Counted from the first letter of the stretch, positions 1-23,323 are shown. The stretch: DNA of 24,000 bases from Candidatus Pacearchaeota archaeon (GCA_050124795.1 JASFEO010000006.1:19597-43596); one strand, 5' to 3'. Made by a program: numbers and translations. The notes: generated from the sequence alone by a model not told the origin.

Positions 1-527
1 ATCTAAGTGCAAATGTTTTTACTCTCTACGGTGAATCTGCATCTTCTCTTGACAGAATACTTGAAAAAACAATTGATGTTAATACAGTCGAGGTTTTAGA
101 TAATTGTGAAATTGATTTAACAGAAGCAAAATACAATAAACAAAAAAAAGAATTTAAAATAAGGGCAGAAAATCTAGCAGATGTTGATTGTTGGGCAAAC
201 ATTGAAATAACTAACCTAAAAGTGGGTTACAATGAAATAACTTCAGGAACAATCACTGCGGAAAAAATTTCTGCAAAAAAAAGTAAGACAATTTCAATAA
301 AAGAAGAATTAAATGAAGAGGATCTTTTGCAAAATCAAATTATTGAAGTAACTGCGAGATATGGTGAACGAGAAGACGGACTTGTAAAAACCAAAACCAA
401 GACACTAACTCTTGCAACAGAATTTTTTTCAGGAATTAGCTATGGGATAATGACAATTGTCCTGACAATAATAATCCTGCTTATCACAATCTGGATACTA
501 AGAAAAAAAGATGAAGAAGGTTATTAA
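1..527 (+). CDS. C-terminal part of a larger surface or secreted protein with a C-terminal TM anchor (5' end lies outside the window)
   Basis: The frame is open from nt 3 to TAA 525-527 with no stop, so the GTG at 222 in the ORF track is probably not the true start. The C-terminus GISYGIMTIVLTIIILLITIWIL is a hydrophobic helix followed by RKKDEEGY (positive-inside). I recognise no family. Confidence 0.6.
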   Translation, partial: LSANVFTLYGESASSLDRILEKTIDVNTVEVLDNCEIDLTEAKYNKQKKEFKIRAENLADVDCWANIEITNLKVGYNEITSGTITAEKISAKKSKTISIKEELNEEDLLQNQIIEVTARYGEREDGLVKTKTKTLTLATEFFSGISYGIMTIVLTIIILLITIWILRKKDEEGY

Positions 528-528
528 A

Positions 529-948
529 TTATTTTTTCGCCGCAATATTTTTTTCTTTTGATTCAATCACATCCAATTCTTTTTTTACGTTATCCAAAAT
601 CAAAACAACCTGATTAAATGATTGTTCATCTAAATCAGACTTAAACAATTTAATTTTAAATTTAACAGAACTTAATTTTAAACTTAATTCGATCAGGTCT
701 TTTCCTTTTTTCCTCTCCACACTTATTCGTGTATGCAAATCAGAATACTTTTCATTTAGATAACTAATAACAATATTTTCAAGAAAGACCATAAGTTCTT
801 TTTTGCCCCCATATGCCCTTTTCACTTTTTCGTCAGGAATAAGATTATATTTTTTTAACAAAATCAAAACTTTTCCAAAATCTTCATTAACAAATTTTAA
901 AACATCTTCAAAATTATTTATAACGATCTCTTTTTCTTCGTCACTCAT
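529..948 (-). CDS. Small acidic/lysine-rich, predicted helical cytosolic protein; last gene of the ATPase operon; function unknown
   Basis: 139-aa ORF. Its ATG (946-948) overlaps the TGA (945-947) of the upstream ATPase gene in an ATGA arrangement, implying translational coupling. It has no TM segment and no recognisable motif. Confidence 0.6.
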   Translation of the reverse strand: MSDEEKEIVINNFEDVLKFVNEDFGKVLILLKKYNLIPDEKVKRAYGGKKELMVFLENIVISYLNEKYSDLHTRISVERKKGKDLIELSLKLSSVKFKIKLFKSDLDEQSFNQVVLILDNVKKELDVIESKEKNIAAKK

Positions 949-3338
949 TCTTTACTTTTTCCTTTATTCTCTTTATTTTGCGGGTTTTCTTTTTTTCCAG
1001 ATGAAAATTTTTCTTCCCTTTTTCCCAATTTACCTAGGGCGGTGATCATCCTTTGCTTATCTAAAATAGATTTTAATTTTTCCCCTTCATCTTTTGATAA
1101 ATTTTTCTCCACCCATTGTGCAATATCATTCTTGTTTTCATTTACATGAATTCTAAAGACTTCTTCATCCATCGTCGGAAGAGCCCCCAAAAGTTCAGCT
1201 GCACTACTAACCATAATTCCATTGTCAAAAGTTAGGGCAGCTACTTCTTTTTTTAAGATATCTTCTTTTTTTTGAACAACTTTTTCTGCAACTTCACTTG
1301 CTTTTTCCTTTTTCTCAAACTCCTTCCTCGACTCCTGCGCCTCCTTAACGGATTTCTTAATTTCATCCTCGCTGACAAGTTTAATCTCTCTCTTTGGCGG
1401 AGTCTTCCCCAAAGTTTCCCATGCCTTCTCCACCCTCGGCTTCAGTCCTTCCAGATAAATTTCCACGACGCTAAAATTCCCGCTCATCACTTTATCCTTA
1501 ACAAGTTTCAATTCCATTCGAAGATCAAAAACATCCTGCTTTTCACGCTCAAGCGCATCAATCGAAAACTCCAAATCATCAACAATATCATTATACTTAT
1601 TATATTTCTCAAGTTCCTCATCAGGCAATCGACGGGTATTATGCAGGATGGGCCTGAAATTTATGAAATAAGGTCGACCCCGATTATACTCTGCATTCTG
1701 AAACATCGCAACTCCAACTTCAGCACGAATCAAAGATTTCAAAAACCCCTCACCATACTTTGTTTTTATCCTCTCCAAATCTCCTTCCTCCAATGTTCTC
1801 GTCTGAACCTCAGTATTAATATTCGCTTTAATCTCTCCAACAAAATCATTCAAAACCTGACTAATCAACATCATCCCTAATCCCCATTTCCTGAATTCAC
1901 GACACGCTCTCTCAACCTGCAAAAATCCCTGCCCGCTTCCACCAAACTTACTTAATAACCTATGAACCTCATCAAACACCAAAAGAACTTTCAATACAGG
2001 AGATTCCTTGGGATCAGACTTAAAAACTTGCCTGATAACATTTGAAACAAAAATATCCATATCTTTTGGATCAAGTTTATTCAAACTAAAAATCTGAATC
2101 TGTCCGGGGGAAACATATTTATTAATATCAATTAATTCCCTTGCATGAGTAACCTGCCGAACATTTCCTTTAAACGCCCGTGCATCAGTCTCTTTTAATC
2201 CGAACTTGGGATAATAACTCATCATTTTTTTGTCAGTGCATTTTCTAAGCATCCCGCTCCACTGCGCAGTCGGATCAAACACAATCACAGCAATATTATT
2301 CATCAAAGCCTCTTCAATTATAACCTGCGCAGAAATACTTTTCCCCCCGCCTGTTGCTCCTGCAACAATTGTGTGTGTTGTCAGCCTCGCCGGGTCAAGA
2401 TAAGAAGAAACTTTCTTCTCTGCGATGTTTCCTAAATGCAAAAAACCATCTTCTTTTTTAGGAAGAGTCTTCAAATCAAGAACCATCTTGTATTTTTTCT
2501 TTGATTCTATATGTCTCTTTATAAAATAAAAAATCAAAAACCCCAAAATAAAAATCCCTGCAATAAGAATTAAAACCCAAAGAGGCAAAACACCAAAAAG
2601 AAGGATCTGCCAAAAATGCTTTTTCAAAACAAAACCTGCTTTATTCTCAATAACAAAAGAATCACTCTCCAAAACAACCTTCAGAATACAATCACCAAAA
2701 TTTATTTCATCAGGAAAGGAAAATGTCTTAAGAATTTGAAAAGAATTCGTTACATTAATCGTTTCTGTTTTAAGGGGAAAAGAATTATTCAAAGAATCCT
2801 GCATGGAATAAGTAAAAGAAACGTTTTCAATTGCTTCTTTTTTCAACTTATTAATTTTTAAATTAAATTGAAAAAGTGCTCCTTTTACAAAACTTGTTTT
2901 TATGGGCTTAATTTCCATTAAAAAAGGCGAAGTTATTTCCTCTTCAACAACATTTACATTTATAGGAATTTTTTCAATTATATCGCCTTTTATTTCCAAA
3001 AGACCATTGTAGACACCAACATCTTTCCCAACTATTGTAAAATAAAAAAGAGATTTATTTTCAGAAGAAATTGAAAATCCAACATCGTACTTATCAATGA
3101 CCTGCCCAATATCCCCTGAAAAAGAAAAAGAGATTGTTATTCCTGTTTGCTTCAGATTGTTAATTTCAATAAAATCCTCCAAAATAGTTCCGTGCCCAAT
3201 TGTTCTGTTAAGACTATTTGTGGAAATAGAATAATCATCAGTCTTTATAGCTGAACCATAAGAAGCTTCTGTTAATGGGTAAAAATTAAAAATTAAAAAA
3301 AGCCCAATAAAAATTAAAATATTTCTTCTAAGAATCAT
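945..3338 (-). CDS. Type-I membrane-anchored HerA/FtsK-class (DUF87-like) P-loop ATPase with an N-terminal extracellular beta-rich domain
   Basis: 797 aa. N-terminus is signal-peptide-like (MILRRNILIFIGLFLIFNFYPLTEA). An ectodomain with N-x-S/T sequons follows, then a hydrophobic segment at aa 241-273 (nt 2520-2618) and KRHIESKKKYK. ATPase motifs are Walker A GATGGGKS (nt 2340-2363), VIVFDPTAQW, Walker B LLVFDEVH (nt 1962-1988) and EFRKWGLGMMLISQ. This motif order is typical of HerA/DUF87 ATPases. The tail is charged and coiled-coil-like, ending in a module with FRIHVNENKNDIAQW. Confidence 0.8.
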   Translation of the reverse strand: MILRRNILIFIGLFLIFNFYPLTEASYGSAIKTDDYSISTNSLNRTIGHGTILEDFIEINNLKQTGITISFSFSGDIGQVIDKYDVGFSISSENKSLFYFTIVGKDVGVYNGLLEIKGDIIEKIPINVNVVEEEITSPFLMEIKPIKTSFVKGALFQFNLKINKLKKEAIENVSFTYSMQDSLNNSFPLKTETINVTNSFQILKTFSFPDEINFGDCILKVVLESDSFVIENKAGFVLKKHFWQILLFGVLPLWVLILIAGIFILGFLIFYFIKRHIESKKKYKMVLDLKTLPKKEDGFLHLGNIAEKKVSSYLDPARLTTHTIVAGATGGGKSISAQVIIEEALMNNIAVIVFDPTAQWSGMLRKCTDKKMMSYYPKFGLKETDARAFKGNVRQVTHARELIDINKYVSPGQIQIFSLNKLDPKDMDIFVSNVIRQVFKSDPKESPVLKVLLVFDEVHRLLSKFGGSGQGFLQVERACREFRKWGLGMMLISQVLNDFVGEIKANINTEVQTRTLEEGDLERIKTKYGEGFLKSLIRAEVGVAMFQNAEYNRGRPYFINFRPILHNTRRLPDEELEKYNKYNDIVDDLEFSIDALEREKQDVFDLRMELKLVKDKVMSGNFSVVEIYLEGLKPRVEKAWETLGKTPPKREIKLVSEDEIKKSVKEAQESRKEFEKKEKASEVAEKVVQKKEDILKKEVAALTFDNGIMVSSAAELLGALPTMDEEVFRIHVNENKNDIAQWVEKNLSKDEGEKLKSILDKQRMITALGKLGKREEKFSSGKKENPQNKENKGKSKE

Positions 3339-5178
3339 CTGATTTTTCTCCTTTTAATTTATCTCCATTATTTTCTTTTCCATCTGAATTTTTTTGATTT
3401 CCCTCTTTAACATTTTTTTCTTGTGAAGTTTTTTCTGTAGAAGAATTACCCCAAAAACCAGATTCCCCGCCCAGGTCAAATTTCTGCGCAAGATTTTCCA
3501 TTTGAATCTTCAATGCCTCCTTATTTTCAAGCATCTCTTTTGTAACTGGTTCGCCATAGCGGTTTTTCATCTTTATAAAAAGGTTAACAGCCTCATCAAA
3601 TTTCTTCATTGCCATTAATTTGCGAAGTTCAAGAGATTCAACATACAAATTCAAACCTTTCTTTCTTTCTGCAAGATTTTTATACCTTAAAACAAAGAGA
3701 ATTGAAAAGAAAGAAAGAAAAACAATTAACAAAAAAACAGATGAAGATTTGACAAAAGCTAAAAATTTAAACCTTGCTCCTACCTCGAATTCATCTGAAC
3801 TAATAGAAAGGATCGAATCTTCCTGAAATGCTCTGGCATAAAAAAGATAATCCCCAAGAGACATATCTTCAGGAAGAGTAAAATTCCTCATCAAACTTAT
3901 TGGAGATGTTAAGACAATCTCCTCATCAGATGAATCATAAACCCGCCCATAAAAATCAATAATAAAAAAATGAAGACCAATAGTTTCCTCAATTAAATCC
4001 CCTAAATTTTCCAGAGAAATATTGGCAACAATAGTTTCACCGGGTTTTACAAATTTATATTTCTCTGGAATTAAAACCGAAACTTCAATATCACTTTCAA
4101 GAGGATTGACTTCAAACACAATTGGAATTGAAAGATTAGATACAGATTCAACTAAAACCTCTCCAAAATAATGCCCGGGAATAGTCTCTTTTTTTGCGAA
4201 AAAATCAATTGTAATTTTTTTTGTTTCTCCTGCGGAGACAACAAGGGAATTGTGGCTTAGGATAACAAATTCCCCCAGACCATCAACACTAAAATTAAAA
4301 GGTAATTCTGTATTTCCAGTATTTGTAATTTCAAGGATTTTTGTTTGCGCCGAACCTTGCTTTACTGAAACAAAAAAAGAAGAAACACTGAGTTTAAACT
4401 CATCAAAATCTTTTTTGAAAATTTTTTTAATTTTCGCTGTAATTGAATCTTCGTCATCGTCGTCGTCAGGGACGATTGTTGAAGGTGGAACAACTCTTGC
4501 TGAAACTGAAAAATTTTTTACATCGGTGCAATTACTATTGCTGCTTGAATCTCTTGCACAAAAATACCATGATACTATCTGTCCGGAAGACGCGCTTATT
4601 TGAATTGTCTTTGTAGATTCATTTGTTAATCCTGCAAAATTTCCATTATATCCAAAAGAGCTGGAACTTTGATTAACAAAAAGCGTGTAATTTTTAAGCA
4701 AAAGATTATCTGTCCAGTTTGCACTAAAAACAACATAATCGTTTTGATAAATAACCCCCTTATCTTTTTCAGGATTATTCCATTTTGGGGGTTCATCATC
4801 AACTGCAATAAAAAGCGAAACTACATTACTACTGGCATTCCCTGCCCCATCATCTGCATAAAAAATAATCTCCCTTATTCCTGAAAATGAATCATTTGGA
4901 TAAAAAGAAACTTCTCCCTCGCTAATTACAATAGTTATATCTTCAACAACAGAAGAAGAGTAAATCAGGGTTGCATTTATTGCAGATCCAAAATAATCAT
5001 CTAAATCAAATGCACCCAATAAATTCCCCCCAGACCATGACTGATTAGGGATTATCCCCACAAAAAACGGTGGAGAATTTTCTATTTCTAAACCTGTGCT
5101 AACTGCTAAAAGAGAGTTCATAAAAAAAATAAAAATGAATGCAAGACATATAAATAAAATACCTCTTTTCTCCATCAT
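3328..5178 (-). CDS. Multi-domain surface (adhesin-like) glycoprotein candidate with a C-terminal TM anchor and helical cytoplasmic tail
   Basis: The longest ORF begins at TTG 5229. I prefer ATG 5178 (MMEKRGILFICLAFIFIFFMNSLLAVSTG, a canonical signal peptide) because an A/T box lies about 25 nt upstream. Ectodomain features: a module ending AVDDEPP (cadherin/tandem-repeat-like), a Cys-containing Ig-like module (nt 4501-4794), a poly-Asp linker PDDDDDEDS (nt 4444-4470) and two CARDB/Ig-like beta modules. TM is at nt 3685-3747, followed by the tail RYKNLAERKKG... The stop overlaps the ATPase gene start by 11 nt. Confidence 0.75.
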   Translation of the reverse strand: MMEKRGILFICLAFIFIFFMNSLLAVSTGLEIENSPPFFVGIIPNQSWSGGNLLGAFDLDDYFGSAINATLIYSSSVVEDITIVISEGEVSFYPNDSFSGIREIIFYADDGAGNASSNVVSLFIAVDDEPPKWNNPEKDKGVIYQNDYVVFSANWTDNLLLKNYTLFVNQSSSSFGYNGNFAGLTNESTKTIQISASSGQIVSWYFCARDSSSNSNCTDVKNFSVSARVVPPSTIVPDDDDDEDSITAKIKKIFKKDFDEFKLSVSSFFVSVKQGSAQTKILEITNTGNTELPFNFSVDGLGEFVILSHNSLVVSAGETKKITIDFFAKKETIPGHYFGEVLVESVSNLSIPIVFEVNPLESDIEVSVLIPEKYKFVKPGETIVANISLENLGDLIEETIGLHFFIIDFYGRVYDSSDEEIVLTSPISLMRNFTLPEDMSLGDYLFYARAFQEDSILSISSDEFEVGARFKFLAFVKSSSVFLLIVFLSFFSILFVLRYKNLAERKKGLNLYVESLELRKLMAMKKFDEAVNLFIKMKNRYGEPVTKEMLENKEALKIQMENLAQKFDLGGESGFWGNSSTEKTSQEKNVKEGNQKNSDGKENNGDKLKGEKSDDS

Positions 5179-5196
5179 AATATTGATTAAACGCAA

Positions 5197-5206
5197 TTTA
5201 AATAAT
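5197..5206 (-). promoter_or_regulatory. TATA-like box for the surface-protein/ATPase operon
   Basis: The minus strand reads aaaattatttaaatt, ending about 24-27 nt upstream of ATG 5178. This is consistent with a leaderless or near-leaderless archaeal transcript. Confidence 0.3.
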
Positions 5207-5295
5207 TTTATTAATAAGATTGTCAACAATGGAATCCTTCTTGCGGGATATTTATCAGAGTAATTGAAAAGCTCTCGAAAGAATTGTTAACAACA

Positions 5296-5317
5296 TTATA
5301 AACAATAATGTTTATAA
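5296..5317. promoter_or_regulatory. Perfect 9-bp inverted repeat (TTATAAACA-N4-TGTTTATAA) in the divergent promoter region; candidate operator overlapping a TATA box
   Basis: I read 5296-5304 as ttataaaca and 5309-5317 as tgtttataa, which are exact reverse complements. The right arm contains the TATA box of the + strand operon. Confidence 0.5.
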
Positions 5318-5318
5318 A
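5311..5318 (+). promoter_or_regulatory. TATA box (TTTATAAA) 29 nt upstream of ATG 5340; leaderless-type promoter
   Basis: The same box and spacing recur at 23340 to ATG 23369 (29 nt) and 23615 to ATG 23645 (30 nt). No Shine-Dalgarno-like sequence is visible. Confidence 0.5.
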
Positions 5319-5339
5319 GTCTTAAATCAAACCTTTAAT

Positions 5340-5549
5340 ATGCCAAAAAAAGACTCTAAAAAGACCAAAATAGGCTCAAAAGAAAAACCCCGAGCAGAAA
5401 CAGTGATTGTCAAGGGCACAATAACAAAAAAACAGAGGGAAGTTCTTCAAAAATTCGTGGGGATAATTGGAAGTAATGAACAGGATGTTGTTGGGAAAAT
5501 CCTGACACTCTGGATGTATAATGAAGGACACTTAAAAAACTTAAAATGA
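5340..5549 (+). CDS. Small basic protein, possible ribbon-helix-helix (RHH/CopG-like) DNA-binding regulator
   Basis: 69 aa. It has a Lys-rich N-terminus, then a strand-like VIVKGTI, helix KKQREVLQKFVGIIG, a G-S-N turn and helix EQDVVGKILTLWMY, which fits the beta-alpha-alpha RHH pattern. Its TGA overlaps the ATG of the downstream giant gene (ATGA at 5546-5549). Confidence 0.45.
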   Translation: MPKKDSKKTKIGSKEKPRAETVIVKGTITKKQREVLQKFVGIIGSNEQDVVGKILTLWMYNEGHLKNLK

Positions 5550-8500
5550 AAATAAAAAAATATCTTTCAATAGGTGTGATACTCTTTTTTGTAATGAATA
5601 TTGTGATTGCAAATGAAGCCATGACCTCTTCAATAACTCAGGATGAAAGTTCAGAACAAATAAATTCAAACAGTGAACAAGCTTCAGAAGAGATAAATAC
5701 AGAATCGCAAACTCAAAACATAGAGCAGAAAGTAAACCCCGAAGACAATGAAATAAATCCCAAAACAACTAGCCAAGAAAATGATGTAACCCCCCCAACA
5801 AAAATAACTTCTGAAGAAATTACGGAAAATCCTGAAGAGGTCGCAACAGATACAGAAAATGGAGATATTAATTTAGAAATTGTTTCAAATGCAATAAATG
5901 AAAAACAAGAAAATGCTTCTAAAGAAGAAGTTGAAAATACAACCGAGATTCAGGAAATTTCTTCAAAAACAAATCAATCATCCGAAATTAAAATAGGTTC
6001 AAATGATTCTTCCAAAATTAAAGAAATTAATTCACCATCTAAAACCGTGGAGAATTTTTCAGAAGAAAACAATTCAGAAATAGAAAATTTATCTTTAAAA
6101 GAAAATCAGGGTTATTATATTAATATTGATAATGTCGAAAATTCAAAAAGTTCTCCCTTATCTAATATTGCAAAAACACAAGAAAAGGATGAAAATAATT
6201 TTGAAAATAAAACCCAACTCCTTGCTCTTTACAATAATGATGGAAAAATTGCAATCAAAGGAGAAATCCCTGCAAACTTCACAAATGCCATTACAAAAAA
6301 AGAAAAAATTATAGACTCAAAAAATTTTTCAAAAGAATTCACAATAAAAAGTTCAGAACACCTCAATAGTGAACTAATTGTTTATTCAGATATCCCTGAA
6401 TCAAAAAAAGAAAATATAAAAGTTTATTGGAAAAATGAAGATAAAGAAGTAAAAATAAAAGAATATCTTGATGAAAATAATAATGAATTAATTGAAAGAA
6501 TCTCATGGATAGTTCCGCATTTGTCTGAACAGGTTTTTGAAATAAGGATTGAAACAGAAATCTTAGGCAATTCAACAAGTGGAGAAATAGAATTAAACGT
6601 TATCAATTCTCCAAACATAAATGCAAAAAACCCAATTAATTTTAAATTTAGTATTGATTACAATGGAAACAAAACATTAAACTGCAGTTTAAGATTATAT
6701 AATTCAACAGATAGCCTAACATACAGCTTTTCAAATGAAAAACCAATTAGTGAAGAATTAGAAATTCCAAATGGAGATTATAATTGGACTGCAACATGCC
6801 TTGAAGAAGAAGACTCTTCAAATAAAGATAGTAAATCAGGAAATTTTACAATAAATGAAGAACCATTAACAATCTATGGAATGCAGGAGATATATTTAAC
6901 AAATGATGATATTGATTTTTCACTTACAGGGGGGTATGATTTAAGCAACATTACATTATTTTACGAGGATGATTCAAATATTGCCTATCAAAAAAATAAT
7001 ACCTCTGAAAAAAATATCCCTTCTTCAGCAATTCAAAATCCAGGAAAATATATTTTAAAAATTAAATCAACTGGTAATGAAAAACCAACGCAGATAACAA
7101 CAAAAGAATTTTCAGTCGCTTCTGCAGAAATAAATCTTGAAAAAGAAAAGATAGAAATTGATGAAGATGCTAAAATAACTATTAAAATAAATTCACCTGA
7201 TGAAAAGATCCTATTTGCTAAATTAGAATACGGGGATGAAAATTATGATTACATAGCAGAGAACCAATCTAACTTTATAGATACCTTTACTTATAGTTAC
7301 CTGGAAGAAAAAATATATAATCTAAAATTAACAATTTATTTTGACAGCCAACAATTCTCAATAACAAAACAAATAACTGTCTCTGATTCTGACAACACTG
7401 ACAATGAAAAACCAAAGATAACATTAATAGAACCTGCAAATAACGCAAAATTCACAGACCAAACAATAAACTTCAAATACAATGCAACTGACAACACAAA
7501 ATTAAAGAACTGTACTTATGATTTAAACTATTATTCCTGCCCGTCATGCTGGGGGAGCGTGGACTACTCAGAAAATAAATCCTTCTCATCAAATGCTGGA
7601 GAAGCGACAATCCATCTTCATGATTTTGATGTTGGAAATTATACCTGGGTTGTGACTTGCTATGACAATTCCAGCAATTCAGAATGGGAATCGAGAAAGT
7701 TTGAAATCATCCCTTCGGGTTTTGAAGCTTTGACTTACTCCGAAGAAACAGAAGTTGAAGAAGCCCAATCAAGGCTCGAGGATTTTCTCACTAAAATAGA
7801 TTCACAGGGACCTGAAGTAAAAGAGGCCTTAAAAGATCTGGGAGTTTATAATGACCTATCAAAAGTCTATTCCGGAAGAATCCAGGCAATAAAAATTTAT
7901 TTCCAAACAGGATACAAAACAATTTCCCCAGACAAAAGAGAAGAAAAAAATAAAGAATACTTAGAAGAATTAGAGGAAATTAAAGAAAAAATTCCTTTAG
8001 ATATTGAAATTATAAAAGCAAATGAATATGTAAAAAATTCTGTTTCAGAAAACTTAAAAGAAATAATAAAACAAGCCATTCTCTCAACAACACCGTTAAT
8101 TGAAAAAAGATCTCTAAATAAGTTAACTGAAAATATTTTCACAATTCAAAATAAATTCACTGCTTCAGTCACAAGTAAAAAATTAAAAATCAAGTACCAA
8201 AATGAAACCAGAGAAATAACTCTCATCACAAAAAAAATTAAAACAGATGAAGAAGATGCAACTTTTTTTGAATACACTCCAAAAGAATTCGGAAAAATAA
8301 TATTCATAACAAAAACAAAAGAACTTGAAAACAATATTTTTGAAATTAATAAAGAAAATATTGAAGATAATAAAATAATTTACTATATTGATGACTTTGT
8401 CGATATTGATGAAGTCAAAAAAACAGAAACAATTTTAGTATTAGAAGTTTCTGAAAAAAACAAAAACAACATAACAGGATTCTCAATAATTGATTTAAAA

Positions 8501-8965
8501 CCAAACAATATGTTTAACTATCTTATCTACATTGTTTTTTTAATTGTCCTCCTTTACTCTGCTATTAAAATAAAAGAAAAAATTGATTGGAAGAAATTAA
8601 GTAAAAAAGAAGAGATTTCAAAAAGTCTTGAGTTTATAAAAGAAGCAAAAGAAGCTTTGAAACAAAACCGCCTGGAAGCTGCTAAATATTCTTATTACAA
8701 AATAAAAGAAATTTATTCAAAGCTCTCTGAAAAATGCAAAATTAAAATGCAAAAAGAAATAATTAAAATAAAAATTGGAATTGATAAAAGAGAAATTATA
8801 AATTTAGTAAAAGAATATGAAAACTTAAGGAGGGAAAATCAAATAAGCGAAGCCAAAATAATTTACAGTAAAATACAAAGAACATATAAAACATTGCCAA
8901 AAAAATACCAGGAAAAAATTTACAGGAGAATTTGCCCGGCATCTGTTGATGATTTTTTTAAATGA
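5546..8965 (+). CDS. Giant (1139 aa) surface glycoprotein candidate: signal peptide, acidic low-complexity stalk, Ig-like Cys modules, C-terminal TM and helical cytoplasmic tail
   Basis: Signal-like N-terminus is KIKKYLSIGVILFFVMNIVIANEA. An E/N/S/T/Q-rich region spans nt 5618-6220. Two homologous Cys-pair modules lie at nt 6611-6853 and 7409-7711. I count more than 20 N-x-S/T sequons by eye. TM MFNYLIYIVFLIVLLYSAI is at nt 8507-8569, followed by the tail KIKEKIDWKK... Confidence 0.8.
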   Translation: MKIKKYLSIGVILFFVMNIVIANEAMTSSITQDESSEQINSNSEQASEEINTESQTQNIEQKVNPEDNEINPKTTSQENDVTPPTKITSEEITENPEEVATDTENGDINLEIVSNAINEKQENASKEEVENTTEIQEISSKTNQSSEIKIGSNDSSKIKEINSPSKTVENFSEENNSEIENLSLKENQGYYINIDNVENSKSSPLSNIAKTQEKDENNFENKTQLLALYNNDGKIAIKGEIPANFTNAITKKEKIIDSKNFSKEFTIKSSEHLNSELIVYSDIPESKKENIKVYWKNEDKEVKIKEYLDENNNELIERISWIVPHLSEQVFEIRIETEILGNSTSGEIELNVINSPNINAKNPINFKFSIDYNGNKTLNCSLRLYNSTDSLTYSFSNEKPISEELEIPNGDYNWTATCLEEEDSSNKDSKSGNFTINEEPLTIYGMQEIYLTNDDIDFSLTGGYDLSNITLFYEDDSNIAYQKNNTSEKNIPSSAIQNPGKYILKIKSTGNEKPTQITTKEFSVASAEINLEKEKIEIDEDAKITIKINSPDEKILFAKLEYGDENYDYIAENQSNFIDTFTYSYLEEKIYNLKLTIYFDSQQFSITKQITVSDSDNTDNEKPKITLIEPANNAKFTDQTINFKYNATDNTKLKNCTYDLNYYSCPSCWGSVDYSENKSFSSNAGEATIHLHDFDVGNYTWVVTCYDNSSNSEWESRKFEIIPSGFEALTYSEETEVEEAQSRLEDFLTKIDSQGPEVKEALKDLGVYNDLSKVYSGRIQAIKIYFQTGYKTISPDKREEKNKEYLEELEEIKEKIPLDIEIIKANEYVKNSVSENLKEIIKQAILSTTPLIEKRSLNKLTENIFTIQNKFTASVTSKKLKIKYQNETREITLITKKIKTDEEDATFFEYTPKEFGKIIFITKTKELENNIFEINKENIEDNKIIYYIDDFVDIDEVKKTETILVLEVSEKNKNNITGFSIIDLKPNNMFNYLIYIVFLIVLLYSAIKIKEKIDWKKLSKKEEISKSLEFIKEAKEALKQNRLEAAKYSYYKIKEIYSKLSEKCKIKMQKEIIKIKIGIDKREIINLVKEYENLRRENQISEAKIIYSKIQRTYKTLPKKYQEKIYRRICPASVDDFFK

Positions 8966-10207: not shown

Positions 10208-11695
10208 TTAAAAAAAGAAAAATAAAACCTTGGGCACATAAAGGATTTTATCTTTTTGGACAACCCCCTTAGAACTATCCAAAATTATCCCATACTTTGA
10301 CTCAACTCGCTCCATACTTTTTTTTACTTGGGACATCCCCTTTGAACCCCAACAACATTCTATCGGAACGGCACCACTATTTAATTTAATTATAAAATCT
10401 GCTCCCTTTTGATTTGCATCATCAAAACCTAAATCTTTTATTGGCGAAGTGGGTTTTTTTAAATTTAATAAAAGGGTATTAAATACACTTTCTTCAAAAA
10501 AAGTGCCTAATTGTGAACTATCTAAAATATTCAACCTTCCCATATTCCATAGTAAAACACTTCTTATATTAGGATGTTTAAAGTAATATTTTGGAGGTCT
10601 GGCAACACGCTTTAAAGGATTATTGCTATAATATTTTTCTTCTTCAATTAAACAAGCCATTTTCAATGATTCTAAAATATTAAAAACAGTTCCTTCAGGC
10701 ATTCCATCAAGCTCCCCCGAAATAGACTTTACACTATTTGTTGCAGGAGGCAAACTATTTGCCAGATATTGTAACATTGCGAAAACTTTGCTTGAAGACC
10801 TTTGCCCGATTTTGGAATAAACAGGTATGTCCTGTGTTATAACTTTATCAAAAATATTCATCCACCAATTAAAAATATTATTTGTATCATATTCTTCTAA
10901 AGAAACTGGCGAAGCTCCAGAAATTAGATAATCTTCTAACAACTTGTTTAAATTAATATTCTCCAGTGAAGATTTTTTCATCAACTCATTATAAACAGTA
11001 TCTAAAGTATATTGTGCGCTTTCTATATCACTATCTAAGGCAATCCTTATTCTCTCTGCAGTTTTTTTTGGGGGCAAAAATCTATATTTTAAATAAAGAT
11101 ATTCTTGAAAATTTAAAGGGCTAACTTCATCCCTTATCATTCTTCTACTTGCATCAACACTACTTTTGAGACCTAATGCAGAAGAGCCACTAACAAAAAT
11201 TAAAACATTGTTTTCCCCATCACTCCTATTGAATAAACTTGTTGAAAAATCCAGCCAACTTGGGTCATTATGGGCTTCATCTAAAAACAAAATAATTGAT
11301 TCATTTGTTTTTTCTAAAGGTTTGGCTAAAAAAAATTGTTCATATAATTCAAAAAGTTCTTGAAGAGAAGCATTGTAAATCCGATTCAAATCCCCAACAT
11401 CAACATAAATCAATCTTTCTACAGGGATTTTAAAATTATCCCTCAAATACCGATAAGTTTGAAACAACAATGTAGTTTTGCCTACACCCCTCAACCCTGG
11501 AAAAACTACAATTCTCTGCTTAAGAGATTTATCAATAAATTTTCTTACATACATCTCAGGCTTCAAAATAAAACTTCTTCTTGGAAGAAGGTTGCTAGTT
11601 TTAGGGTTTGTTATCTTCTTATTACACCGTTCACTTCCAGTGGAAATAAGATGATTCAAATAACTTCTCAACTTGTTTTTCTTATCAAATTCCAT
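10208..11695 (-). CDS. AAA+ ATPase of the AAA_14 + DUF4143 (COG1373) type with a degenerate nuclease-like C-terminus
   Basis: Walker A is GLRGVGKTT and Walker B is ILFLDEAH. SGSSALGL...SRRMIRDEVSPLNFQEYL matches the family signature TGSS...L.GR.....PLsF.Efl. The C-terminus GADFIIKLNSGAVPIECCWGSK resembles the D...E.K core of the family with K replaced. The ORF track starts at TTG 11701; the first ATG is 11695. Confidence 0.7.
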   Translation of the reverse strand: MEFDKKNKLRSYLNHLISTGSERCNKKITNPKTSNLLPRRSFILKPEMYVRKFIDKSLKQRIVVFPGLRGVGKTTLLFQTYRYLRDNFKIPVERLIYVDVGDLNRIYNASLQELFELYEQFFLAKPLEKTNESIILFLDEAHNDPSWLDFSTSLFNRSDGENNVLIFVSGSSALGLKSSVDASRRMIRDEVSPLNFQEYLYLKYRFLPPKKTAERIRIALDSDIESAQYTLDTVYNELMKKSSLENINLNKLLEDYLISGASPVSLEEYDTNNIFNWWMNIFDKVITQDIPVYSKIGQRSSSKVFAMLQYLANSLPPATNSVKSISGELDGMPEGTVFNILESLKMACLIEEEKYYSNNPLKRVARPPKYYFKHPNIRSVLLWNMGRLNILDSSQLGTFFEESVFNTLLLNLKKPTSPIKDLGFDDANQKGADFIIKLNSGAVPIECCWGSKGMSQVKKSMERVESKYGIILDSSKGVVQKDKILYVPKVLFFFF

Positions 11696-11744
11696 ATTCA
11701 ATTTTTTTGAATGATTTTAGTTAATATTATTCAATTTTTTTGAA
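11696..11744. promoter_or_regulatory. Two identical copies of the 17-nt palindrome ATTCAAAAAAATTGAAT flanking the presumed TATA region of the ATPase gene
   Basis: Copies lie at 11696-11712 (abutting ATG 11695) and 11728-11744. Each is self-complementary (ATTCAA-N5-TTGAAT). An A/T-rich TATA candidate lies between them, about 29 nt from the ATG. Confidence 0.45.
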
Positions 11745-12259: not shown

Positions 12260-12287
12260 AAAAAAATTTTGCCAAAGGCAAAATTTT
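12260..12287 (-). terminator. Hairpin plus U-tract terminator at the 3' end of the uppS-fusion gene
   Basis: A perfect 11-bp stem (12263-12273 aaaattttgcc and 12277-12287 ggcaaaatttt) has a 3-nt loop. On the minus-strand RNA the 3' arm runs into a 7-U tract. The stem overlaps the stop codon at 12286-12288. Confidence 0.5.
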
Positions 12288-13290
12288 AACTATTCCCACC
12301 AAACCTTCTTTTTCTTTTTGAAAATTCTTTTATTGCAAAATCAATATCTTTTTTTGTAAAATCAGGAAAATGTTTTTTTAAAAAAATTAATTCTGCATAA
12401 ACCCCCTGCCAAGGCATAAAACCACTAAGTCTTTTTTCACCACTTGTTCTAACAATTAAATCAGGATCAGGAACACCTTTTGTATCAAGAATTTCTCCAA
12501 ATTGTTTTTCATTAACTTTTTTTGCCTTTGCAGAAAGTAACTTATTCACATTTCTTAAAATTTCATCCCTACCACCATAATCCAAACATAACTGCACATT
12601 ATAATTTTCATAATTTTTTGTCTCATTTTCTAAAACAATCAAAGCATCTCTAACTTCCTTACTAAATCTCTCTTTTCTTCCAATATGCCTAAACCTAACT
12701 TTATTTTCTTTTGCATAATTTCTAAAATCATTTATTCCTCTTAAAAAAACATTAAACAATTTTTCATTTTCCTCTTTCTCGCGTTTCCAATTCTCAGTTG
12801 AAAAACCCCAAAAAGAAACACAACTAACACCTAAATCTCTTGCTTCTTCAAAAAGAGAAATTAAATTTTCAGACTCTCCAGCTTTTTCATGTCCACGAAA
12901 TCCAAGCAAACCCCTTCTCTTAGCCCAGCGACGATTTCCATCAGGAATAATTGCAATATGAATAGGAATATTTTCCAAGCCTCTTCTTAAAAAAACTAAA
13001 TTTCTAAAACCCCTTAACTTATCAATAAAAAAATTAAAATCTTTTTTAACTTCAAAATTTTCATAATCTAAATCATCTATTTTACTTTTTTTAATTTCAG
13101 TTACCTTTGAAAAACCAGGACTCATCTTAACCCAATCAATAAATTCATTAAAATTTTTATCAATAACAACTAAAACACTTCCATCAAAAAGATTTTTCAC
13201 ATAACCATTAATTTTATTTTCAATACAAAAATTTTTTACTTTATTTCTAAATCCAACAAACTGAACTCTTCCATAAACTTTGATTCTCAT
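12286..13290 (-). CDS. uppS: Fusion protein: N-terminal acylphosphatase-like domain plus cis-prenyltransferase (undecaprenyl/polyprenyl diphosphate synthase, UppS family)
   Basis: aa 1-83 (VYGRVQFVGFR...INGYVKNLFDGSVLVVI...FEVKK) match the acylphosphatase pattern V.G.VQGVGFR / G.V.N..DGSV. From about aa 100 the UppS hallmarks appear: HIAIIPDGNRRWA, RTSGEKRLSGFMPWQ..YAEL and RKRRFGG. Confidence 0.85.
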   Translation of the reverse strand: MRIKVYGRVQFVGFRNKVKNFCIENKINGYVKNLFDGSVLVVIDKNFNEFIDWVKMSPGFSKVTEIKKSKIDDLDYENFEVKKDFNFFIDKLRGFRNLVFLRRGLENIPIHIAIIPDGNRRWAKRRGLLGFRGHEKAGESENLISLFEEARDLGVSCVSFWGFSTENWKREKEENEKLFNVFLRGINDFRNYAKENKVRFRHIGRKERFSKEVRDALIVLENETKNYENYNVQLCLDYGGRDEILRNVNKLLSAKAKKVNEKQFGEILDTKGVPDPDLIVRTSGEKRLSGFMPWQGVYAELIFLKKHFPDFTKKDIDFAIKEFSKRKRRFGGNS

Positions 13291-17810: not shown

Positions 17811-18779
17811 TTATTTTGGGGTTATTTTTATTTTCCTAACAAGTTTGGATTTTTCTTCCTGCTTACCAATAATCTCTGCATATTCATCAGATAAACAACT
17901 TAACCTTTCATAAGAACCATTAACTGAAACCTCGGGATCAACATACCTAAACTTTTTCTTTAATCCAATTCCATTTTCAGTTTCGTAAATATCAGAACCA
18001 TTTTTTAAAATTTTCAATTGATTTAAAATATCTTTATCATTTGAATTTCTTAAAATATTTAAAACATAATTATCAGTTTTATAAAAATCTTCAAAAGAAA
18101 TAATTTTTTTTTCTAAACCTTTTTTTAATAATTCAGATAAAAGATAATATCTTGTTCTTGCTTCATCACTTGCCAAGGAATTTTCCTGAAGATTTGAATA
18201 TTCTTTAAAAAAAATCTCTGCGATATTTTTATTTTTAAAAACTATTTGATTGCTTTTAACAAAAAGATTATTAAAAATTAATTTTGGGTTTTTAGAACCC
18301 TTATTATAAAACAGTTCTCTCAAAGAATAATCAATTCTATCTGCACACAAACTTGGAGCCTCTTTTTCTAACAAAAGAAAATTTTCTAACTTAGAAATGT
18401 ATTCAAAAGAAAAATTATATCTGTTTAAAATTTCGGGAATTTCAGAATTTTTAATCACCTCTAAATGATTATTATCCTGGTAATCTTCTTTAATTGGGTC
18501 TCCAAAAATCCAATCAATCACATGCGAAAAAGCAGTATGGGAAACATCATGAAGTAATCCTGAAATCTGTTCATCTAAATCAGATCCTAATTTTCTTAAT
18601 AAAAGAAAAACTCCTAATGAATGCTCAAATCTCGAAAATCCTTTTTTGTAGTAATATTCATCAGGCATACCTAATTGAGAAATTCCTTTCAATCTTTGAA
18701 TAGATTTTGAATTAATTAATTCAATTAAAACTGGCTCATCAATTTTTTCTTTTCCATAAATACTATCTATAATTTCCAT
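17811..18779 (-). CDS. HD-domain metal-dependent phosphohydrolase (COG1078-like, SAMHD1/dNTP triphosphohydrolase superfamily)
   Basis: The H...HD...D set is present: RFEHSLGV, GLLHDVSHTAFSH, CADRIDYSLRE. The N-terminus has D.IYG...QRLKGISQLG, typical of this family. The stop lies 1 nt from the DP2 ATG, and the start overlaps the upstream HAD gene by 17 nt. Confidence 0.75.
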   Translation of the reverse strand: MEIIDSIYGKEKIDEPVLIELINSKSIQRLKGISQLGMPDEYYYKKGFSRFEHSLGVFLLLRKLGSDLDEQISGLLHDVSHTAFSHVIDWIFGDPIKEDYQDNNHLEVIKNSEIPEILNRYNFSFEYISKLENFLLLEKEAPSLCADRIDYSLRELFYNKGSKNPKLIFNNLFVKSNQIVFKNKNIAEIFFKEYSNLQENSLASDEARTRYYLLSELLKKGLEKKIISFEDFYKTDNYVLNILRNSNDKDILNQLKILKNGSDIYETENGIGLKKKFRYVDPEVSVNGSYERLSCLSDEYAEIIGKQEEKSKLVRKIKITPK

Positions 18780-19383
18780 TTTTAAAAATATCCTCCTGCA
18801 CTTCTAACAAATTATTAACAGGAATTATCTTTTTTTCTTGTCTTCCATTTGCCCACAAATATTTATTCCAGGGTCTTTTTGGAAAATAACATTTAATTCC
18901 TGAATCAGAACATTCAGAAATAGTCTCTCCTCTATCATCAGTTAAATATTGAACATTATTTTCTAAGCAAAAATTTAATTTTGAATGATTGCTGCAAGTT
19001 TTATTGCCATTGCAAATAACTTTTTTTATCTCAGGAAAATATTCTTCAACAAATTCTTCAGTTTCTTTTTGTAAAAAAACAGGTCTTGCAGTAATTAAAA
19101 TTTGATATTTTACTTTTGATAAATTCTTAACAACACTTTGCGCTTCAGGATAAGGCCTTAAATTTTCAAAGTCCTGAGATTTATAAAAACAATTAAGCAT
19201 CTCCAAAAATTCTCCCCTTAAAATTTTAAAAACTTCCCAAGGGAAAAAATTAGTAAAATCTTCAAATTTACAATTAGTCCCAAAAACACGATTTCCATAA
19301 ACAACTAATCCCTTCTCAAAAGTAGGAATAAGGGTATCATCCAAATCCCATGCTAAAACTTCTAAATCACTTTTTATTCCCAT
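18763..19383 (-). CDS. HAD-superfamily hydrolase, 5'(3')-deoxyribonucleotidase (NT5C-like) family candidate
   Basis: HAD motif I is WDLDDTLIPTF, motif II ILITARP and motif IV YLTDDR. The C-terminus has KRPWN. It is a paralogue-like match to the ORF at 21085-21666. Confidence 0.6.
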   Translation of the reverse strand: MGIKSDLEVLAWDLDDTLIPTFEKGLVVYGNRVFGTNCKFEDFTNFFPWEVFKILRGEFLEMLNCFYKSQDFENLRPYPEAQSVVKNLSKVKYQILITARPVFLQKETEEFVEEYFPEIKKVICNGNKTCSNHSKLNFCLENNVQYLTDDRGETISECSDSGIKCYFPKRPWNKYLWANGRQEKKIIPVNNLLEVQEDIFKNGNYR

Positions 19384-19465: not shown

Positions 19466-21088
19466 TCATACTTCAATCTTTTCCTCTTCTTCAAAATCTA
19501 AAATCTTAATAGATCTGGTTTTCAAATTTACCATTGGAACCTTACAGTGATCAGGCGTGTTTCCAAACTTTTCCTGATAAGGAGTCATTGCTTCCCAGCA
19601 TGAAGTTGAAACTAATAAAATATTATTATAATATGTCACTGCACTTTTATGGGTATGAGCAGAAACTAAAATATCCGGAATATTAGAAATTAAATGATAA
19701 TCAGTATCAACAGAGGGAAAATATTGAACAGATGCATGAGTCGGTGCCAGATGCCTTTGCCTAAGTAGATACTTCATAATTTCTTCAGGAGAATTTGCTG
19801 CCTTCATTTTCATGAGCCTTGCAACATTATTCACATAATAAAAATAAGAAAACCCATGATAAATTAAAACATTAAAACCATTAAAATTTTTATTAAGTCC
19901 AATTTTTACTTCACTTGGATTTGGAACCAAAATTACATTGTCAAGTTCATAAAGCGGCCATGCATATTTTTCATCAAAAATAGGCTGCGGCTCCATTAAC
20001 CTAACACCCTCATGATTTCCAGGAGAAATAATTATTTTTATATCAGATCTTATTTTTCTAAAAAGTTCTGCAACCTGCAAATATTGTTCTTCCAAATCCA
20101 TTACTTTTAAATCATTTTCCTGATTAGGATAATTTCCAACCCCGGTAATAATGTCTCCTGCAACAATTAAATATTTTATTTTCTCAACTTCTTCTTTTGT
20201 TCCTGCAACTTTGCCATTTAAATAATCAATAAATTTCAAAAAACTTTTTTCCAAAAACCTCTTGCTTCCATAATGCAAATCTCCAATAAACAAAGCATAT
20301 TCCTCTTTTGGCGACTTTTTTCTCGTCAATAAAATTGCCTCTGGAAAAATAACCTCATTTGCAAAAAGAATTTCACGATTTCCAGAACCCTTAAAACCAA
20401 CAATACTATCAAGTGCAATTTCCTCTGCCTTTTCATAAATTTCTTTTTTATCTTTATTAATTAAAACCCGAATTGTTCCTGTCAAATCCTCAATATCTAA
20501 AATTATATTTTTATTTTTAGTAACTCTTTTCTCACTAACTAAACCAATTACTGAAACCCTGCTTCTATCATTTAAAATTTTATTTATTGAAACTAAATTA
20601 TCTAATTCACTATGCTCCTGCAAAATTTCTCTCATTTTATTAAACCTGTTTCTAAAATATTTTACAAAATCAATAACTTCAAGTTTTTTTCCAGGCGTCG
20701 GATTTTGAAAACTAACTTCCACATTCTCATTTATTTTTTCTGTTTTAATTTTTTCAGAATTTTTAACAAAAGAATTTTTTGAATTATCAAAATTATCAAT
20801 AATTTCAGACTCATGAGAAATTTCAATACTAAGACCCAAATTAATTTTCAGTTTTTCTAATTTTTTTTGATTCTCCCTCGGCAAATCCATAAAAAACTTA
20901 TTCACTATCGCGCGATTTTTCTGAAAAACATTTTTTGTAATAATTTTCTGATTAGTATGACTTCTTATTTTTTCCAAAATAATTTTCACAGCCTCTGCGT
21001 CATTAGTCTCACTAAATAAATTCAATACTTCACTATCTAATAAAAATCCTTTTTCAAAACAAAATTTCAAAATTTCCTGAGTATTCAT
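19466..21088 (-). CDS. polB: DNA polymerase II (PolD) small subunit DP1 (Mre11-like phosphoesterase/proofreading exonuclease)
   Basis: Calcineurin-like phosphoesterase motifs are present in order: FIGDLHYGS, VAGDI, PGNHEG, YHGFS, SAHTHK. An OB-fold-like segment precedes them (VSVIGLVSEKRV...ILDIEDLTGTIRVLI). 540 aa. The start overlaps the upstream HAD stop (ATGA at 21085-21088). Confidence 0.9.
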   Translation of the reverse strand: MNTQEILKFCFEKGFLLDSEVLNLFSETNDAEAVKIILEKIRSHTNQKIITKNVFQKNRAIVNKFFMDLPRENQKKLEKLKINLGLSIEISHESEIIDNFDNSKNSFVKNSEKIKTEKINENVEVSFQNPTPGKKLEVIDFVKYFRNRFNKMREILQEHSELDNLVSINKILNDRSRVSVIGLVSEKRVTKNKNIILDIEDLTGTIRVLINKDKKEIYEKAEEIALDSIVGFKGSGNREILFANEVIFPEAILLTRKKSPKEEYALFIGDLHYGSKRFLEKSFLKFIDYLNGKVAGTKEEVEKIKYLIVAGDIITGVGNYPNQENDLKVMDLEEQYLQVAELFRKIRSDIKIIISPGNHEGVRLMEPQPIFDEKYAWPLYELDNVILVPNPSEVKIGLNKNFNGFNVLIYHGFSYFYYVNNVARLMKMKAANSPEEIMKYLLRQRHLAPTHASVQYFPSVDTDYHLISNIPDILVSAHTHKSAVTYYNNILLVSTSCWEAMTPYQEKFGNTPDHCKVPMVNLKTRSIKILDFEEEEKIEV

Positions 21089-22934: not shown

Positions 22935-22964
22935 TTCCCTTTTTTAAAATAAATAAATTATTCT

Positions 22965-22994
22965 ACCCCTCCCAGCATGATTTCTTATGGAAAA
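22965..22994 (-). repeat. ORB1: core plus G-string
   Basis: The minus strand reads TTTTCCATAAGAAATCATGCTGGGAGGGGT. The core TTTCCATAAGAAAT (22980-22993) is followed by the G-string GGGAGGGGT (22965-22973). It abuts the cdc6 promoter. Confidence 0.7.
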
Positions 22995-23077
22995 TAAAGT
23001 TTATTTTTATTTTTCGTTGAGAAAAATATAATTTATTATATAAATGATTATAACTACTAAAAAAGAAAAACACCTAT

Positions 23078-23093
23078 ATTTCTTGTGGAAAAA
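23078..23093 (-). repeat. ORB2: mini-ORB without a clear G-string
   Basis: The plus strand reads ATTTCTTGTGGAAAAA, differing from the ORB1 core at one position (A to G). It contains GTGGAAA, as in the TCCAGTGGAAA mini-ORB consensus I recall from Pyrococcus and Sulfolobus. Confidence 0.6.
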
Positions 23094-23095
23094 TG

Positions 23096-23294: not shown

Positions 23295-23323
23295 TTTCCA
23301 TAAGAAATTAAAGGGTCAGGGTG
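23295..23323 (+). repeat. ORB3: inverted copy of ORB1 with a G-rich tail
   Basis: The plus strand reads TTTCCATAAGAAATTAAAGGGTCAGGGTG. The 14-nt core (23295-23308) is the exact reverse complement of 22980-22993 and is followed by GGG..GGG. Confidence 0.7.

Follow-up and report, generated by a model that had tools for sequence, protein, structure and literature searches.

A short SPEARE-family ATPase of the HerA clade, encoded with surface-protein partners in a Pacearchaeota archaeon, as a putative envelope motor

The stretch of DNA analysed here, 24,000 nucleotides from Candidatus Pacearchaeota archaeon (GCA_050124795.1 JASFEO010000006.1:19597-43596; hereafter the window), is low-GC archaeal DNA (GC ~29%) that encodes a 797-aa membrane-anchored ATPase in an operon with a surface protein and a small cytosolic protein. 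Sequence and predicted structure give good support to the assignment of this ATPase as a short member of the already described SPEARE-cassette family of DPANN archaea, and the explanation that we favour as a whole, with a probability of about 0.6, is that it works as a hexameric, polymer-translocating motor of the cell envelope. The original prediction, made from the DNA alone, had seen a candidate undescribed translocation system; this novelty does not hold, as the same architecture is that of SPEARE (38% identity, E 1e-115; PMC6642349, PMC10266531), and the proviso that it might already belong to a characterised system applies insofar as SPEARE has been described, although with a function that is putative only. 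Architecture and the idea of transport are thus already in the literature, while the HerA assignment, a continuum of ectodomain lengths, partly conserved partners paralogous to the motor's ectodomain, and a supercluster of several modules are new.

The three coupled minus-strand open reading frames (ORFs) of the original prediction, 529-948 (139 aa), 945-3338 (797 aa) and 3328-5229 (633 aa), are all present in the sequence, the last two overlapping by 11 nt (3328-3338) and the start of the first overlapping the 797-aa stop codon by 4 nt (ATGA, 945-948), and these overlaps couple the ATPase to a multi-domain surface protein and a small cytosolic protein, as had been proposed. The motifs quoted at that time are likewise found in the translation of the 797-aa ORF: KRHIESKKKYK (aa 274-284), GATGGGKS (327-334), VIVFDPTAQW (351-360), LLVFDEVH (452-459) and EFRKWGLGMMLISQ (481-494). 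The three ORFs are real genes and not chance frames, because the 797-aa protein has hundreds of full-length homologues at 50-62% identity and its neighbours are homologous across loci.

Topology was derived from Kyte-Doolittle (KD) hydropathy and a positive-inside charge count, and a full-length AlphaFold2 (AF2) model was obtained from a 45-sequence alignment (predicted local distance difference test score, pLDDT, 80.4). A type I membrane protein is well supported, consisting of a signal peptide, two immunoglobulin (Ig)-like ectodomains, a transmembrane (TM) helix, the cytoplasmic ATPase, a coiled coil and a C-terminal domain (Table 1). There is one strong hydrophobic span (core aa 255-273, KD 3.02), with one K/R before it and six after, and the ATPase is placed in the cytoplasm because of this K/R-rich stretch after the TM helix; about 45 residues separate the helix from Walker A. 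N-X-S/T sequons number five in the ectodomain and two in the cytoplasmic part of 517 aa. Compared with relatives, the ATPase is 74% identical, the coiled-coil region 62% and the ectodomain 32%, and K333, D456 and E457 of the Walker A and B motifs, together with many Arg and Glu residues, are invariant across the 45-sequence alignment. The top Foldseek matches of the ectodomain are tandem Ig/ASH-type domains, e.g., RbmA, HYDIN-like and Cep192. In the C-terminal domain the motif TFDNG..HVN..KNDIA.W is nearly invariant in the family alignment; the Pfam match of this domain to DUF5752 is weak and below threshold (E 0.049), and for a single member of the family (P0210) the precomputed annotation lists PF19027.

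Sequence profiles and modelled fold concur in identifying the ATPase core as a HerA-clade member of the FtsK-HerA superfamily with intact catalytic motifs, in line with the FtsK-HerA-type ATPase, type I topology and Ig-like ectodomain originally predicted for the middle protein. The Pfam cut-offs used were 23.2 bits for DUF87 (PF01935), 22 for HerA_C (PF05872), 27.5 for AAA_10, 20.5 for TrwB and 24 for FtsK_SpoIIIE (PF01580). The DUF87/HerA central domain (48.1 bits, E 2e-12) and HerA_C (26.1 bits) score above them, both over aa 301-368, whereas AAA_10 (23.6 bits), TrwB_AAD_bind (12.6 bits) and FtsK_SpoIIIE (16.9 bits) fall below; a ResIII match is weak and below cut-off (E 1e-3), and the PF03135 domain is absent from the Pfam scan of the protein. 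Among HerA/DUF87, FtsK, VirB4/TraC and Ced profiles, DUF87 scores best and those of FtsK, VirB4/TraC and Ced remain below their cut-offs, including the NCBIfam TraC and TraD models (<=25 bits vs 366-648) and the CedD model (a weak match at 30 bits, far below cut-off). The NCBIfam HerA equivalogs also stay low (38 and 29 bits vs cut-offs of 800 and 970). Sequence searches of the PDB, with the single sequence and with a profile, return HerA proteins only, Sulfolobus HerA (4d2i) being best at about E 1e-8. Since Foldseek searches of the PDB with the whole model were swamped by Ig domains, the cytoplasmic part was modelled alone (pLDDT 79.6); its best match is again HerA 4d2i (E 5.6e-7), followed by HerA-NurA and defence-system HerAs, with FtsK (4e-4), TcpA (1e-3), EccC (3e-3) and VirB4 (4.9e-3, 31st) in the lower ranks. 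HerA models of PADLOC also match the ATPase (E 4e-13; mad8 at 2e-11), and a BFVD search gives generic HerA-like and packaging-ATPase matches only. A viral or plasmid origin was considered and rejected, with no match in phage records and plasmid matches only to 23-27% identical DUF87 proteins on haloarchaeal megaplasmids.

In spite of this closeness to HerA in sequence and fold, the 797-aa ATPase is not a HerA orthologue, because it lacks the N-terminal HAS-barrel and the NurA/Mre11/Rad50 context, and unlike HerA it is anchored in the membrane and bears an ectodomain. NurA, Mre11 and Rad50 were found neither among the scanned ORFs of the window nor in the precomputed Pfam annotation of related loci, and pilin and secretin families are also missing from the scanned window ORFs, as had been noted before.

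SPEARE giant surface proteins were introduced by Hamm et al. 2019 from Nanohaloarchaeota, their intracellular part being the most conserved region and labelled as a type III restriction enzyme; versions of 655 and 717 aa were already listed there, as were similar sequences in Woesearchaeota, Aenigmarchaeota, Micrarchaeota and Altiarchaeales, and proteomics showed that Ca. Nha. antarcticus makes the protein (PMC6642349). La Cono et al. 2023 described the nanohaloarchaeal giants as consisting of a Sec signal peptide, ~75 Ig-like domains, a TM helix, a 'VirB4/TraG-like' ATPase and a coiled coil, noted a 'second ATPase' beside the giant gene, and proposed a role as secretion channel (PMC10266531). 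The reference used for alignment was the C-terminal 569 aa of NAR1_1133, the SPEARE of Ca. Nanohaloarchaeum antarcticus, whose full sequence is printed in Fig. S18b of the supplementary information of Hamm et al. By blastp, aa 106-633 of the 797-aa protein align with the last 545 residues of this SPEARE at 38% identity over 552 columns (colinear, E 1e-115), from the membrane-proximal (last) Ig domain through the TM helix and the ATPase to the first part of the coiled coil (aa 633). It is unlikely that the SPEARE cassette and the 797-aa family belong to separate HerA subclades with a likeness confined to generic P-loop motifs, because the alignment reaches E 1e-115 over 545 colinear residues. 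Taken together, these sequence and model comparisons correct two published annotations: the cassette is not a restriction enzyme, the original label being likely explained by the weak ResIII match, and it lies nearer to HerA than to VirB4/TraG. Literature searches for DUF87 or HerA in DPANN or Pacearchaeota, or for FtsK surface proteins of Woesearchaeota, found nothing relevant, and the SPEARE papers were reached via VirB4 in DPANN.

The protein has the traits of the SPEARE cassette, i.e., homology of the intracellular region and the same order of parts, with an Ig-like secreted ectodomain, a single TM helix before the cytoplasmic P-loop ATPase, and a coiled coil after it. It differs from SPEARE in the strict sense in being 797 aa only, its ectodomain consisting of two Ig domains (~215 aa) as opposed to 3,000-9,000 aa, and in that regions of the laminin-G, protease or toxin type were not detected (no Pfam match to Laminin_G, a peptidase or a toxin at E<=1), features that are disputed even for the founding members (PMC10266531). 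It also has the extra C-terminal domain (aa 700-770), missing from the Nha. antarcticus protein, which ends before the equivalent position; the adhesin role appears to be delegated to separate co-operonic proteins; and the downstream gene encodes a small helical protein and not a second VirB4/TraG-type ATPase.

The short form is part of a continuous series. Searched exhaustively by phmmer with aa 285-640, a set of 1.84 billion representatives gives 366 clusters at E<=1e-30; in the best 150 of these the cassette is placed towards the C-terminal end of proteins whose sizes form a continuous range of ~250-6253 aa, and the N-terminal portion joined to it extends continuously from none to ~5,600 aa. 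Full-length homologues fall into two size classes, ~800 aa and ~1250 aa, the larger proteins having an additional CarboxypepD_reg-like region at the N-terminus, and anchor-only and soluble paralogues of the cassette exist as well (366-443 aa). A scan of GTDB species genomes gives at least 568 matches, often two per contig, and almost all of them bear the label Pace-, Woese- or Nanoarchaeota or unclassified archaeon. At one locus (L083) a 3395-aa SPEARE-like gene is followed, after two small genes, by the gene for a soluble paralogous ATPase of 399 aa, a placement that echoes the 'second ATPase' of La Cono et al. (PMC10266531); the accessory set there also includes a 444-aa protein with a helical, coiled-coil-like C-terminus. 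The two small genes (L083, 7252-7918), tried as members of the small-partner family described below, were rejected, as they encode multi-TM proteins (103-112 aa).

Table 1. Positions in the window of the ATPase, its parts and the genes around it
Feature	Position	Strand	Basis or remark
797-aa SPEARE-type membrane-anchored ATPase, whole gene	945..3338	-	
Signal-peptide-like N-terminus of the ATPase, aa 1-25, MILRRNILIFIGLFLIFNFYPLTEA	3264..3338	-	hydrophobic N-terminal helix; putative
Ectodomain, two Ig-like beta-sandwiches, aa 30-131 + 139-239	2622..3251	-	AF2 model
Single TM helix, aa 253-280, then KRHIESKKKYK	2499..2582	-	KD 3.02, positive-inside, AF2 helix
Cytoplasmic HerA-clade P-loop ATPase, aa 300-561	1656..2441	-	Walker A 327-334, Walker B 452-459
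Helical / coiled-coil region, aa 573-688	1275..1622	-	AF2 long helices
Small C-terminal alpha/beta domain, aa 700-770	1029..1241	-	conserved motif TFDNG..HVN..KNDIA.W
139-aa small cytosolic helical protein, 'sm' family	529..948	-	start overlaps ATPase stop (ATGA)
Surface protein, ~616 aa from ATG 5178	3328..5178	-	633-aa mechanical ORF runs from TTG 5229
Divergent intergenic region	5179..5339	.	inverted repeats + TATA-like sequence
69-aa small protein, ATGA-coupled to next gene	5340..5549	+	
1139-aa type I surface protein	5546..8965	+	overlaps 69-aa gene by ATGA
3' end (last ~174 codons) of ~555-560-aa type I surface protein, 'p558' family	1..527	+	cut by window edge; convergent to operon

The partner upstream of the ATPase gene is the surface protein of the 633-aa ORF, for which the TTG at 5229 is most likely a mechanical start and the ATG at 5178 the true one, because homologues align from residue 18 of the ORF; starting there, the product has the signal peptide MMEKRGILFICLAFIFIFF. 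It continues with an Ig/cadherin-like ectodomain (weak Ig-like Pfam matches, the best a HYDIN/VesB-like Ig at E 2.9e-5), a TM helix at ORF aa 496-514 and a cytoplasmic tail of ~115 aa. A weak but reproducible similarity (E 1e-3 to 2.5e-5) links the ectodomain of the ATPase (aa 32-259) to the 633-aa family, in the membrane-proximal region represented by aa 277-531 of the 633-aa ORF, so that by sequence comparison the two proteins appear to have a paralogous membrane-proximal module of Ig domain and TM helix. Downstream, the 139-aa protein has no TM helix by hydropathy and no Pfam, NCBIfam or PADLOC family. A word-indexed homologue search with it returned only itself, and its family was recovered by iterated hidden Markov models (HMMs) run over the ORFs of 82 fetched loci and the window (83 sources); it is present in 55 of the 83, with a conserved core of ~100 aa (..LRKKGKDV..PLKIK.F..DFYKVKK..).

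The same survey allows the co-conservation of the three genes to be followed, and here the earlier expectation stands in part. A 633-aa family member lies directly upstream of the short-class ATPase in 34/46 loci, whereas the small partner is found directly downstream of only 22/43 short ATPases (21/27 for the long ones). In three related loci, L001, L002 and L004, the 633-aa protein has counterparts of 740, 699 and 663 aa, respectively (34-43% identity, aligned from residue 18), and the product of window positions 222-527, which has a C-terminal TM helix, matches the C-termini of proteins of 558-560 aa (E 3e-14 to 4e-9); the 139-aa protein has counterparts downstream of the ATPase in L001 and L002 only (177 and 171 aa, 31-36% identity, E 6e-21 and 3e-9). 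The operon is thus partly conserved in Pace- and Woesearchaeales, which is reported here for the first time.

The unit is larger than the three genes behind one promoter that had been envisaged, since a second ATGA-coupled pair, encoding proteins of 69 and 1139 aa, lies across a 160-nt spacer, and the cluster continues past the left end of the window. The 1139-aa protein has a signal peptide, an acidic low-complexity N-terminal region, Ig-like domains (with a weak Big_7 match), a TM helix at 989-1007 and a helical cytoplasmic tail of ~130 aa; its counterparts in L001, L002 and L004 (822, 1053 and 847 aa) occupy the same divergent position (28-38% identity, E 1e-80 to 4e-130). The tails of the 633-aa and 1139-aa families are related with moderate support (hhalign probability 70%, E 4e-5), and the comparison of the small partner with the ATPase coiled coil gives a low probability of 34%. 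The idea that one cytoplasmic helical-hairpin motif is common to all these regions was considered and rejected: the tails of the 633- and 1139-aa families alone are supported, moderately, the small partner and ATPase remain at 34%, and the other comparisons are negative.

The 69-aa protein is the best conserved neighbour of the ATPase (64-77% vs 28-43% identity for the surface proteins), with counterparts of 69, 72 and 66 aa at the same position in L001, L002 and L004 and a family present in 32 loci. It has no Pfam match, and its beta-alpha-alpha sequence pattern makes it a candidate ribbon-helix-helix-like regulator. A TATA-like sequence, TTTATAAA, is located at 5311-5318, ~22 nt upstream of its ATG, and is overlapped by nested inverted repeats (window 5283-5320; 5287-5299 with 5305-5317, and 5293-5304 with 5309-5320) that could possibly form an autoregulatory operator, with a leaderless transcript for the 69-aa gene. 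On the minus strand an AT-rich TATA-like stretch (~5204-5221) precedes the ATG at 5178, and a single divergent promoter for the operon is plausible. Promoter and operator roles are nevertheless only inferred, because the spacer is AT-rich.

Across loci the genes are arranged in three types of module. In type A, that of the window, the 1139-aa and 69-aa genes stand divergent to a series formed by the 633-aa gene, the gene for the ~800-aa ATPase and that for the small partner, after which comes the convergent p558 gene; type B is built round an ATPase of ~1230 aa; and type C, more distant (44-48% identity), has ATPases of ~1300 aa and surface proteins of 1900-2700 aa. Left of the window, in another assembly of the same organism, lie a 555-aa gene of the p558 family, a SpoIIM-like gene, a 54-aa gene, a CARDB protein, a DUF2080 gene, three further genes and a paralogous ATPase of 1190 aa. 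From this gene order, the operon, the divergent pair and a second module with a longer paralogous ATPase appear to form a conserved envelope supercluster, most proteins of which have no Pfam family, several being secreted and beta-rich and two polytopic (SpoIIM-like and 9-TM). Locus L004, which is at 50% identity and has a different neighbourhood with an integrase, keeps the five-gene core. The neighbouring module encodes secreted, beta-rich proteins that lack an anchor: two of those in another locus (L005, 14840-15616 and 16424-17137) have a common extreme C-terminus, ..HDFEMLVLEDGH..TTPY[YF]FYVELE, and a secreted, anchor-less beta-rich CARDB protein (L001, 14269-16134) has the looser ending ..TIYLYYDLV; these proteins may be fibre or surface-layer subunits.

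In the explanation favoured here, the ATPase would form a hexameric ring beneath the membrane, as do the solved HerA and FtsK relatives among its fold matches, and would thereby bundle six TM helices and six ectodomains. This ring, the paralogous 633-aa partner and other membrane proteins of the cluster would constitute an envelope-spanning complex at the cell surface or at the site of contact with a host, and a polymer would be driven through the ring by hydrolysis of ATP. As cargo, nucleic acid (DNA) is favoured over protein, tentatively at best, because the nearest relatives by sequence and fold (HerA, FtsK and coupling proteins) are DNA translocases.

Several points weigh against such a motor. 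The hexamer is taken solely from the hexameric state of the solved relatives, and the SPEARE cassette, although a described family, has itself a putative function. One TM helix per subunit would give six helices, few for a pore of DNA size, and other membrane partners would therefore be needed. No recognisable DNA-binding domain was found in the ATPase, the C-terminal domain giving only the sub-threshold match to DUF5752. The small partner is not directly downstream in about half of the short-class loci, and the accessory genes of L083 differ from the set of the window. Finally, synteny with the closest relatives partly reflects relatedness, because it also takes in the housekeeping genes PolD, Cdc6 and TctA.

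The alternative that survives best, although we consider it unlikely, is the protein-effector secretion channel, or 'T4SS-like straw' (T4SS, type IV secretion system), in which the ATPase would energise export of proteins into the host, as La Cono et al. 2023 (PMC10266531) proposed for this cassette; the cargo would possibly be the co-encoded small helical proteins or other effectors, passing through or along the ectodomain. VirB4/VirD4 proteins (TraG, TrwB, TcpA) and Ced do belong to the same superfamily of membrane-associated motors for DNA and protein transfer (TcpA 1e-3 and VirB4 4.9e-3 in the fold comparison), but all their family models are below cut-off for the 797-aa protein (AAA_10 23.6 vs 27.5; TrwB 12.6 vs 20.5; no PF03135), and its type I anchor with an Ig ectodomain is unlike their N-terminal polytopic or hairpin anchors. 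General Pfam and NCBIfam scans gave no match to VirB2/3/6/8 or CedA/A1/A2 among the proteins of the window or cluster, these being small proteins that are hard to detect without a dedicated search. ATPases of the FtsK-HerA superfamily also drive protein export by type VII systems, whose EssC/EccC is a membrane-anchored FtsK-like ATPase encoded beside small helical proteins (EccC fold match E 3e-3), and a small helical cytosolic protein indeed lies directly downstream of most long-class and half of the short-class ATPases. Yet the 797-aa protein contains a single ATPase domain where EssC/EccC has three, and it lacks an FHA domain; no relationship to WXG100 was detected for the small partner (no Pfam match); and in the fold ranking both HerA and FtsK come ahead of VirB4 and EccC. 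Moreover, the surface proteins of the cluster bear Sec-type signal peptides of their own, and an ectodomain of two Ig domains is far too short for a 'straw'.

Less likely still is a surface organiser that translocates nothing, in which the ATPase ring would cluster, anchor or remodel adhesins or S-layer-like proteins through their cytoplasmic tails and so control adhesion from the inside out. It would fit the type I topology of every large partner (633 aa, 1139 aa and p558), the related helical tails of the 633- and 1139-aa families (hhalign 70%, E 4e-5), the paralogy of the ATPase ectodomain to its partner's membrane-proximal module, the fast evolution of the ectodomains next to a conserved motor, and the richness of the supercluster in secreted and anchored beta-rich proteins; but no HerA/FtsK-clade ATPase is known to act in this way, and the likeness of the small partner to the helical region of the ATPase reaches a probability of only 34%.

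Two further alternatives are very improbable because of the surface-protein context with its multiple paralogues and the absence of effectors. A membrane-anchored, FtsK-like DNA pump for chromosome segregation or division would agree with the superfamily, with the FtsK fold match (E 4e-4) and with the location of the gene, in several genomes, within a conserved part of the core genome close to PolD and Orc1/Cdc6. FtsK/SpoIIIE is likewise a hexameric membrane-anchored pump for double-stranded DNA, but it has four N-terminal TM helices, as opposed to one following an ectodomain, and its gamma (winged-helix) domain was not detected in the 797-aa C-terminus; the Pfam FtsK_SpoIIIE score is 16.9 vs a cut-off of 24. 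Moreover, each genome has two or three paralogous modules, ectodomains as long as ~5,600 aa occur joined to this cassette, surface proteins are encoded in one operon with the ATPase, and the neighbourhood in L004 differs and contains an integrase. A HerA-based anti-virus defence module, the least probable of all despite the PADLOC matches (HerA E 4e-13, mad8 2e-11) and the HerAs of Sir2-HerA and DUF4297-HerA systems among the best fold matches, is opposed by the lack of any adjoining Sir2, DUF4297 or nuclease effector in Pfam and PADLOC scans, by an ectodomain and surface-protein partners that do not fit, by the wide presence of the family in species-representative genomes (at least 568 matches, often two copies per contig, gene order kept), and by the lack of relatives in phage records, with only distant DUF87 matches on plasmids.

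Other features lie further along the window, where the genes for PolD DP2, PolD DP1 and Orc1/Cdc6 are found. Directly upstream of orc1/cdc6 (21702-22934, minus strand) the sign of the GC skew reverses in ~1.1 kb of non-coding, extremely AT-rich DNA (22935-24000, GC 18%). Two 14-nt sequences there, ATTTCTTATGGAAA / TTTCCATAAGAAAT (22980-22993 and 23295-23308), are exact inverted copies of each other, and the region is a candidate replication origin with elements like origin recognition boxes (ORB). The gene for the PolD small subunit (19466-21088) is flanked by paralogous NT5C-type 5'(deoxy)nucleotidase genes (18763-19383 and 21085-21666, both minus strand), and an HD-domain protein (17811-18779) is encoded between DP2 and DP1; nucleotidases and HD protein round the replication genes look like nucleotide salvage. 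A 497-aa AAA_14 + DUF4143 ATPase (10208-11701, minus strand), of the PADLOC candidate defence family PDC-S01 (E 5e-30), stands between the genes for a TctA-like transporter and undecaprenyl-diphosphate (UPP) synthase, and a 334-aa fusion (12286-13290, minus strand) joins an N-terminal acylphosphatase (E 7e-14) to a cis-prenyltransferase/undecaprenyl-diphosphate synthase (E 1e-64). On the plus strand the cumulative GC skew falls strongly and steadily, to -5.5 over the 24 kb, which agrees with a minus-strand location of most genes.

Most DPANN archaea are unable to synthesise nucleotides, lipids or amino acids themselves, and for the way in which they draw material from their hosts the SPEARE cassette is among the few lineage-wide candidates. 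A wider, joint claim, which for now must be held doubtful, is that the SPEARE-type cassette with a non-motor partner and a small subunit would be the core of an unrecognised class of archaeal trans-envelope conduits that move DNA, RNA or protein between symbiont and host; such a class would be HerA-derived, unrelated in composition to T4SS, Ced and type VII systems, and have relatives in other DPANN lineages, with the 800-aa form as its minimal, tractable version. Known SPEARE examples, at 4,000-9,400 aa, are impractical, whereas the compact 797-aa form with its defined, partly conserved partners makes the question testable, its complex being small enough for AlphaFold-Multimer, recombinant expression and cryo-electron microscopy.

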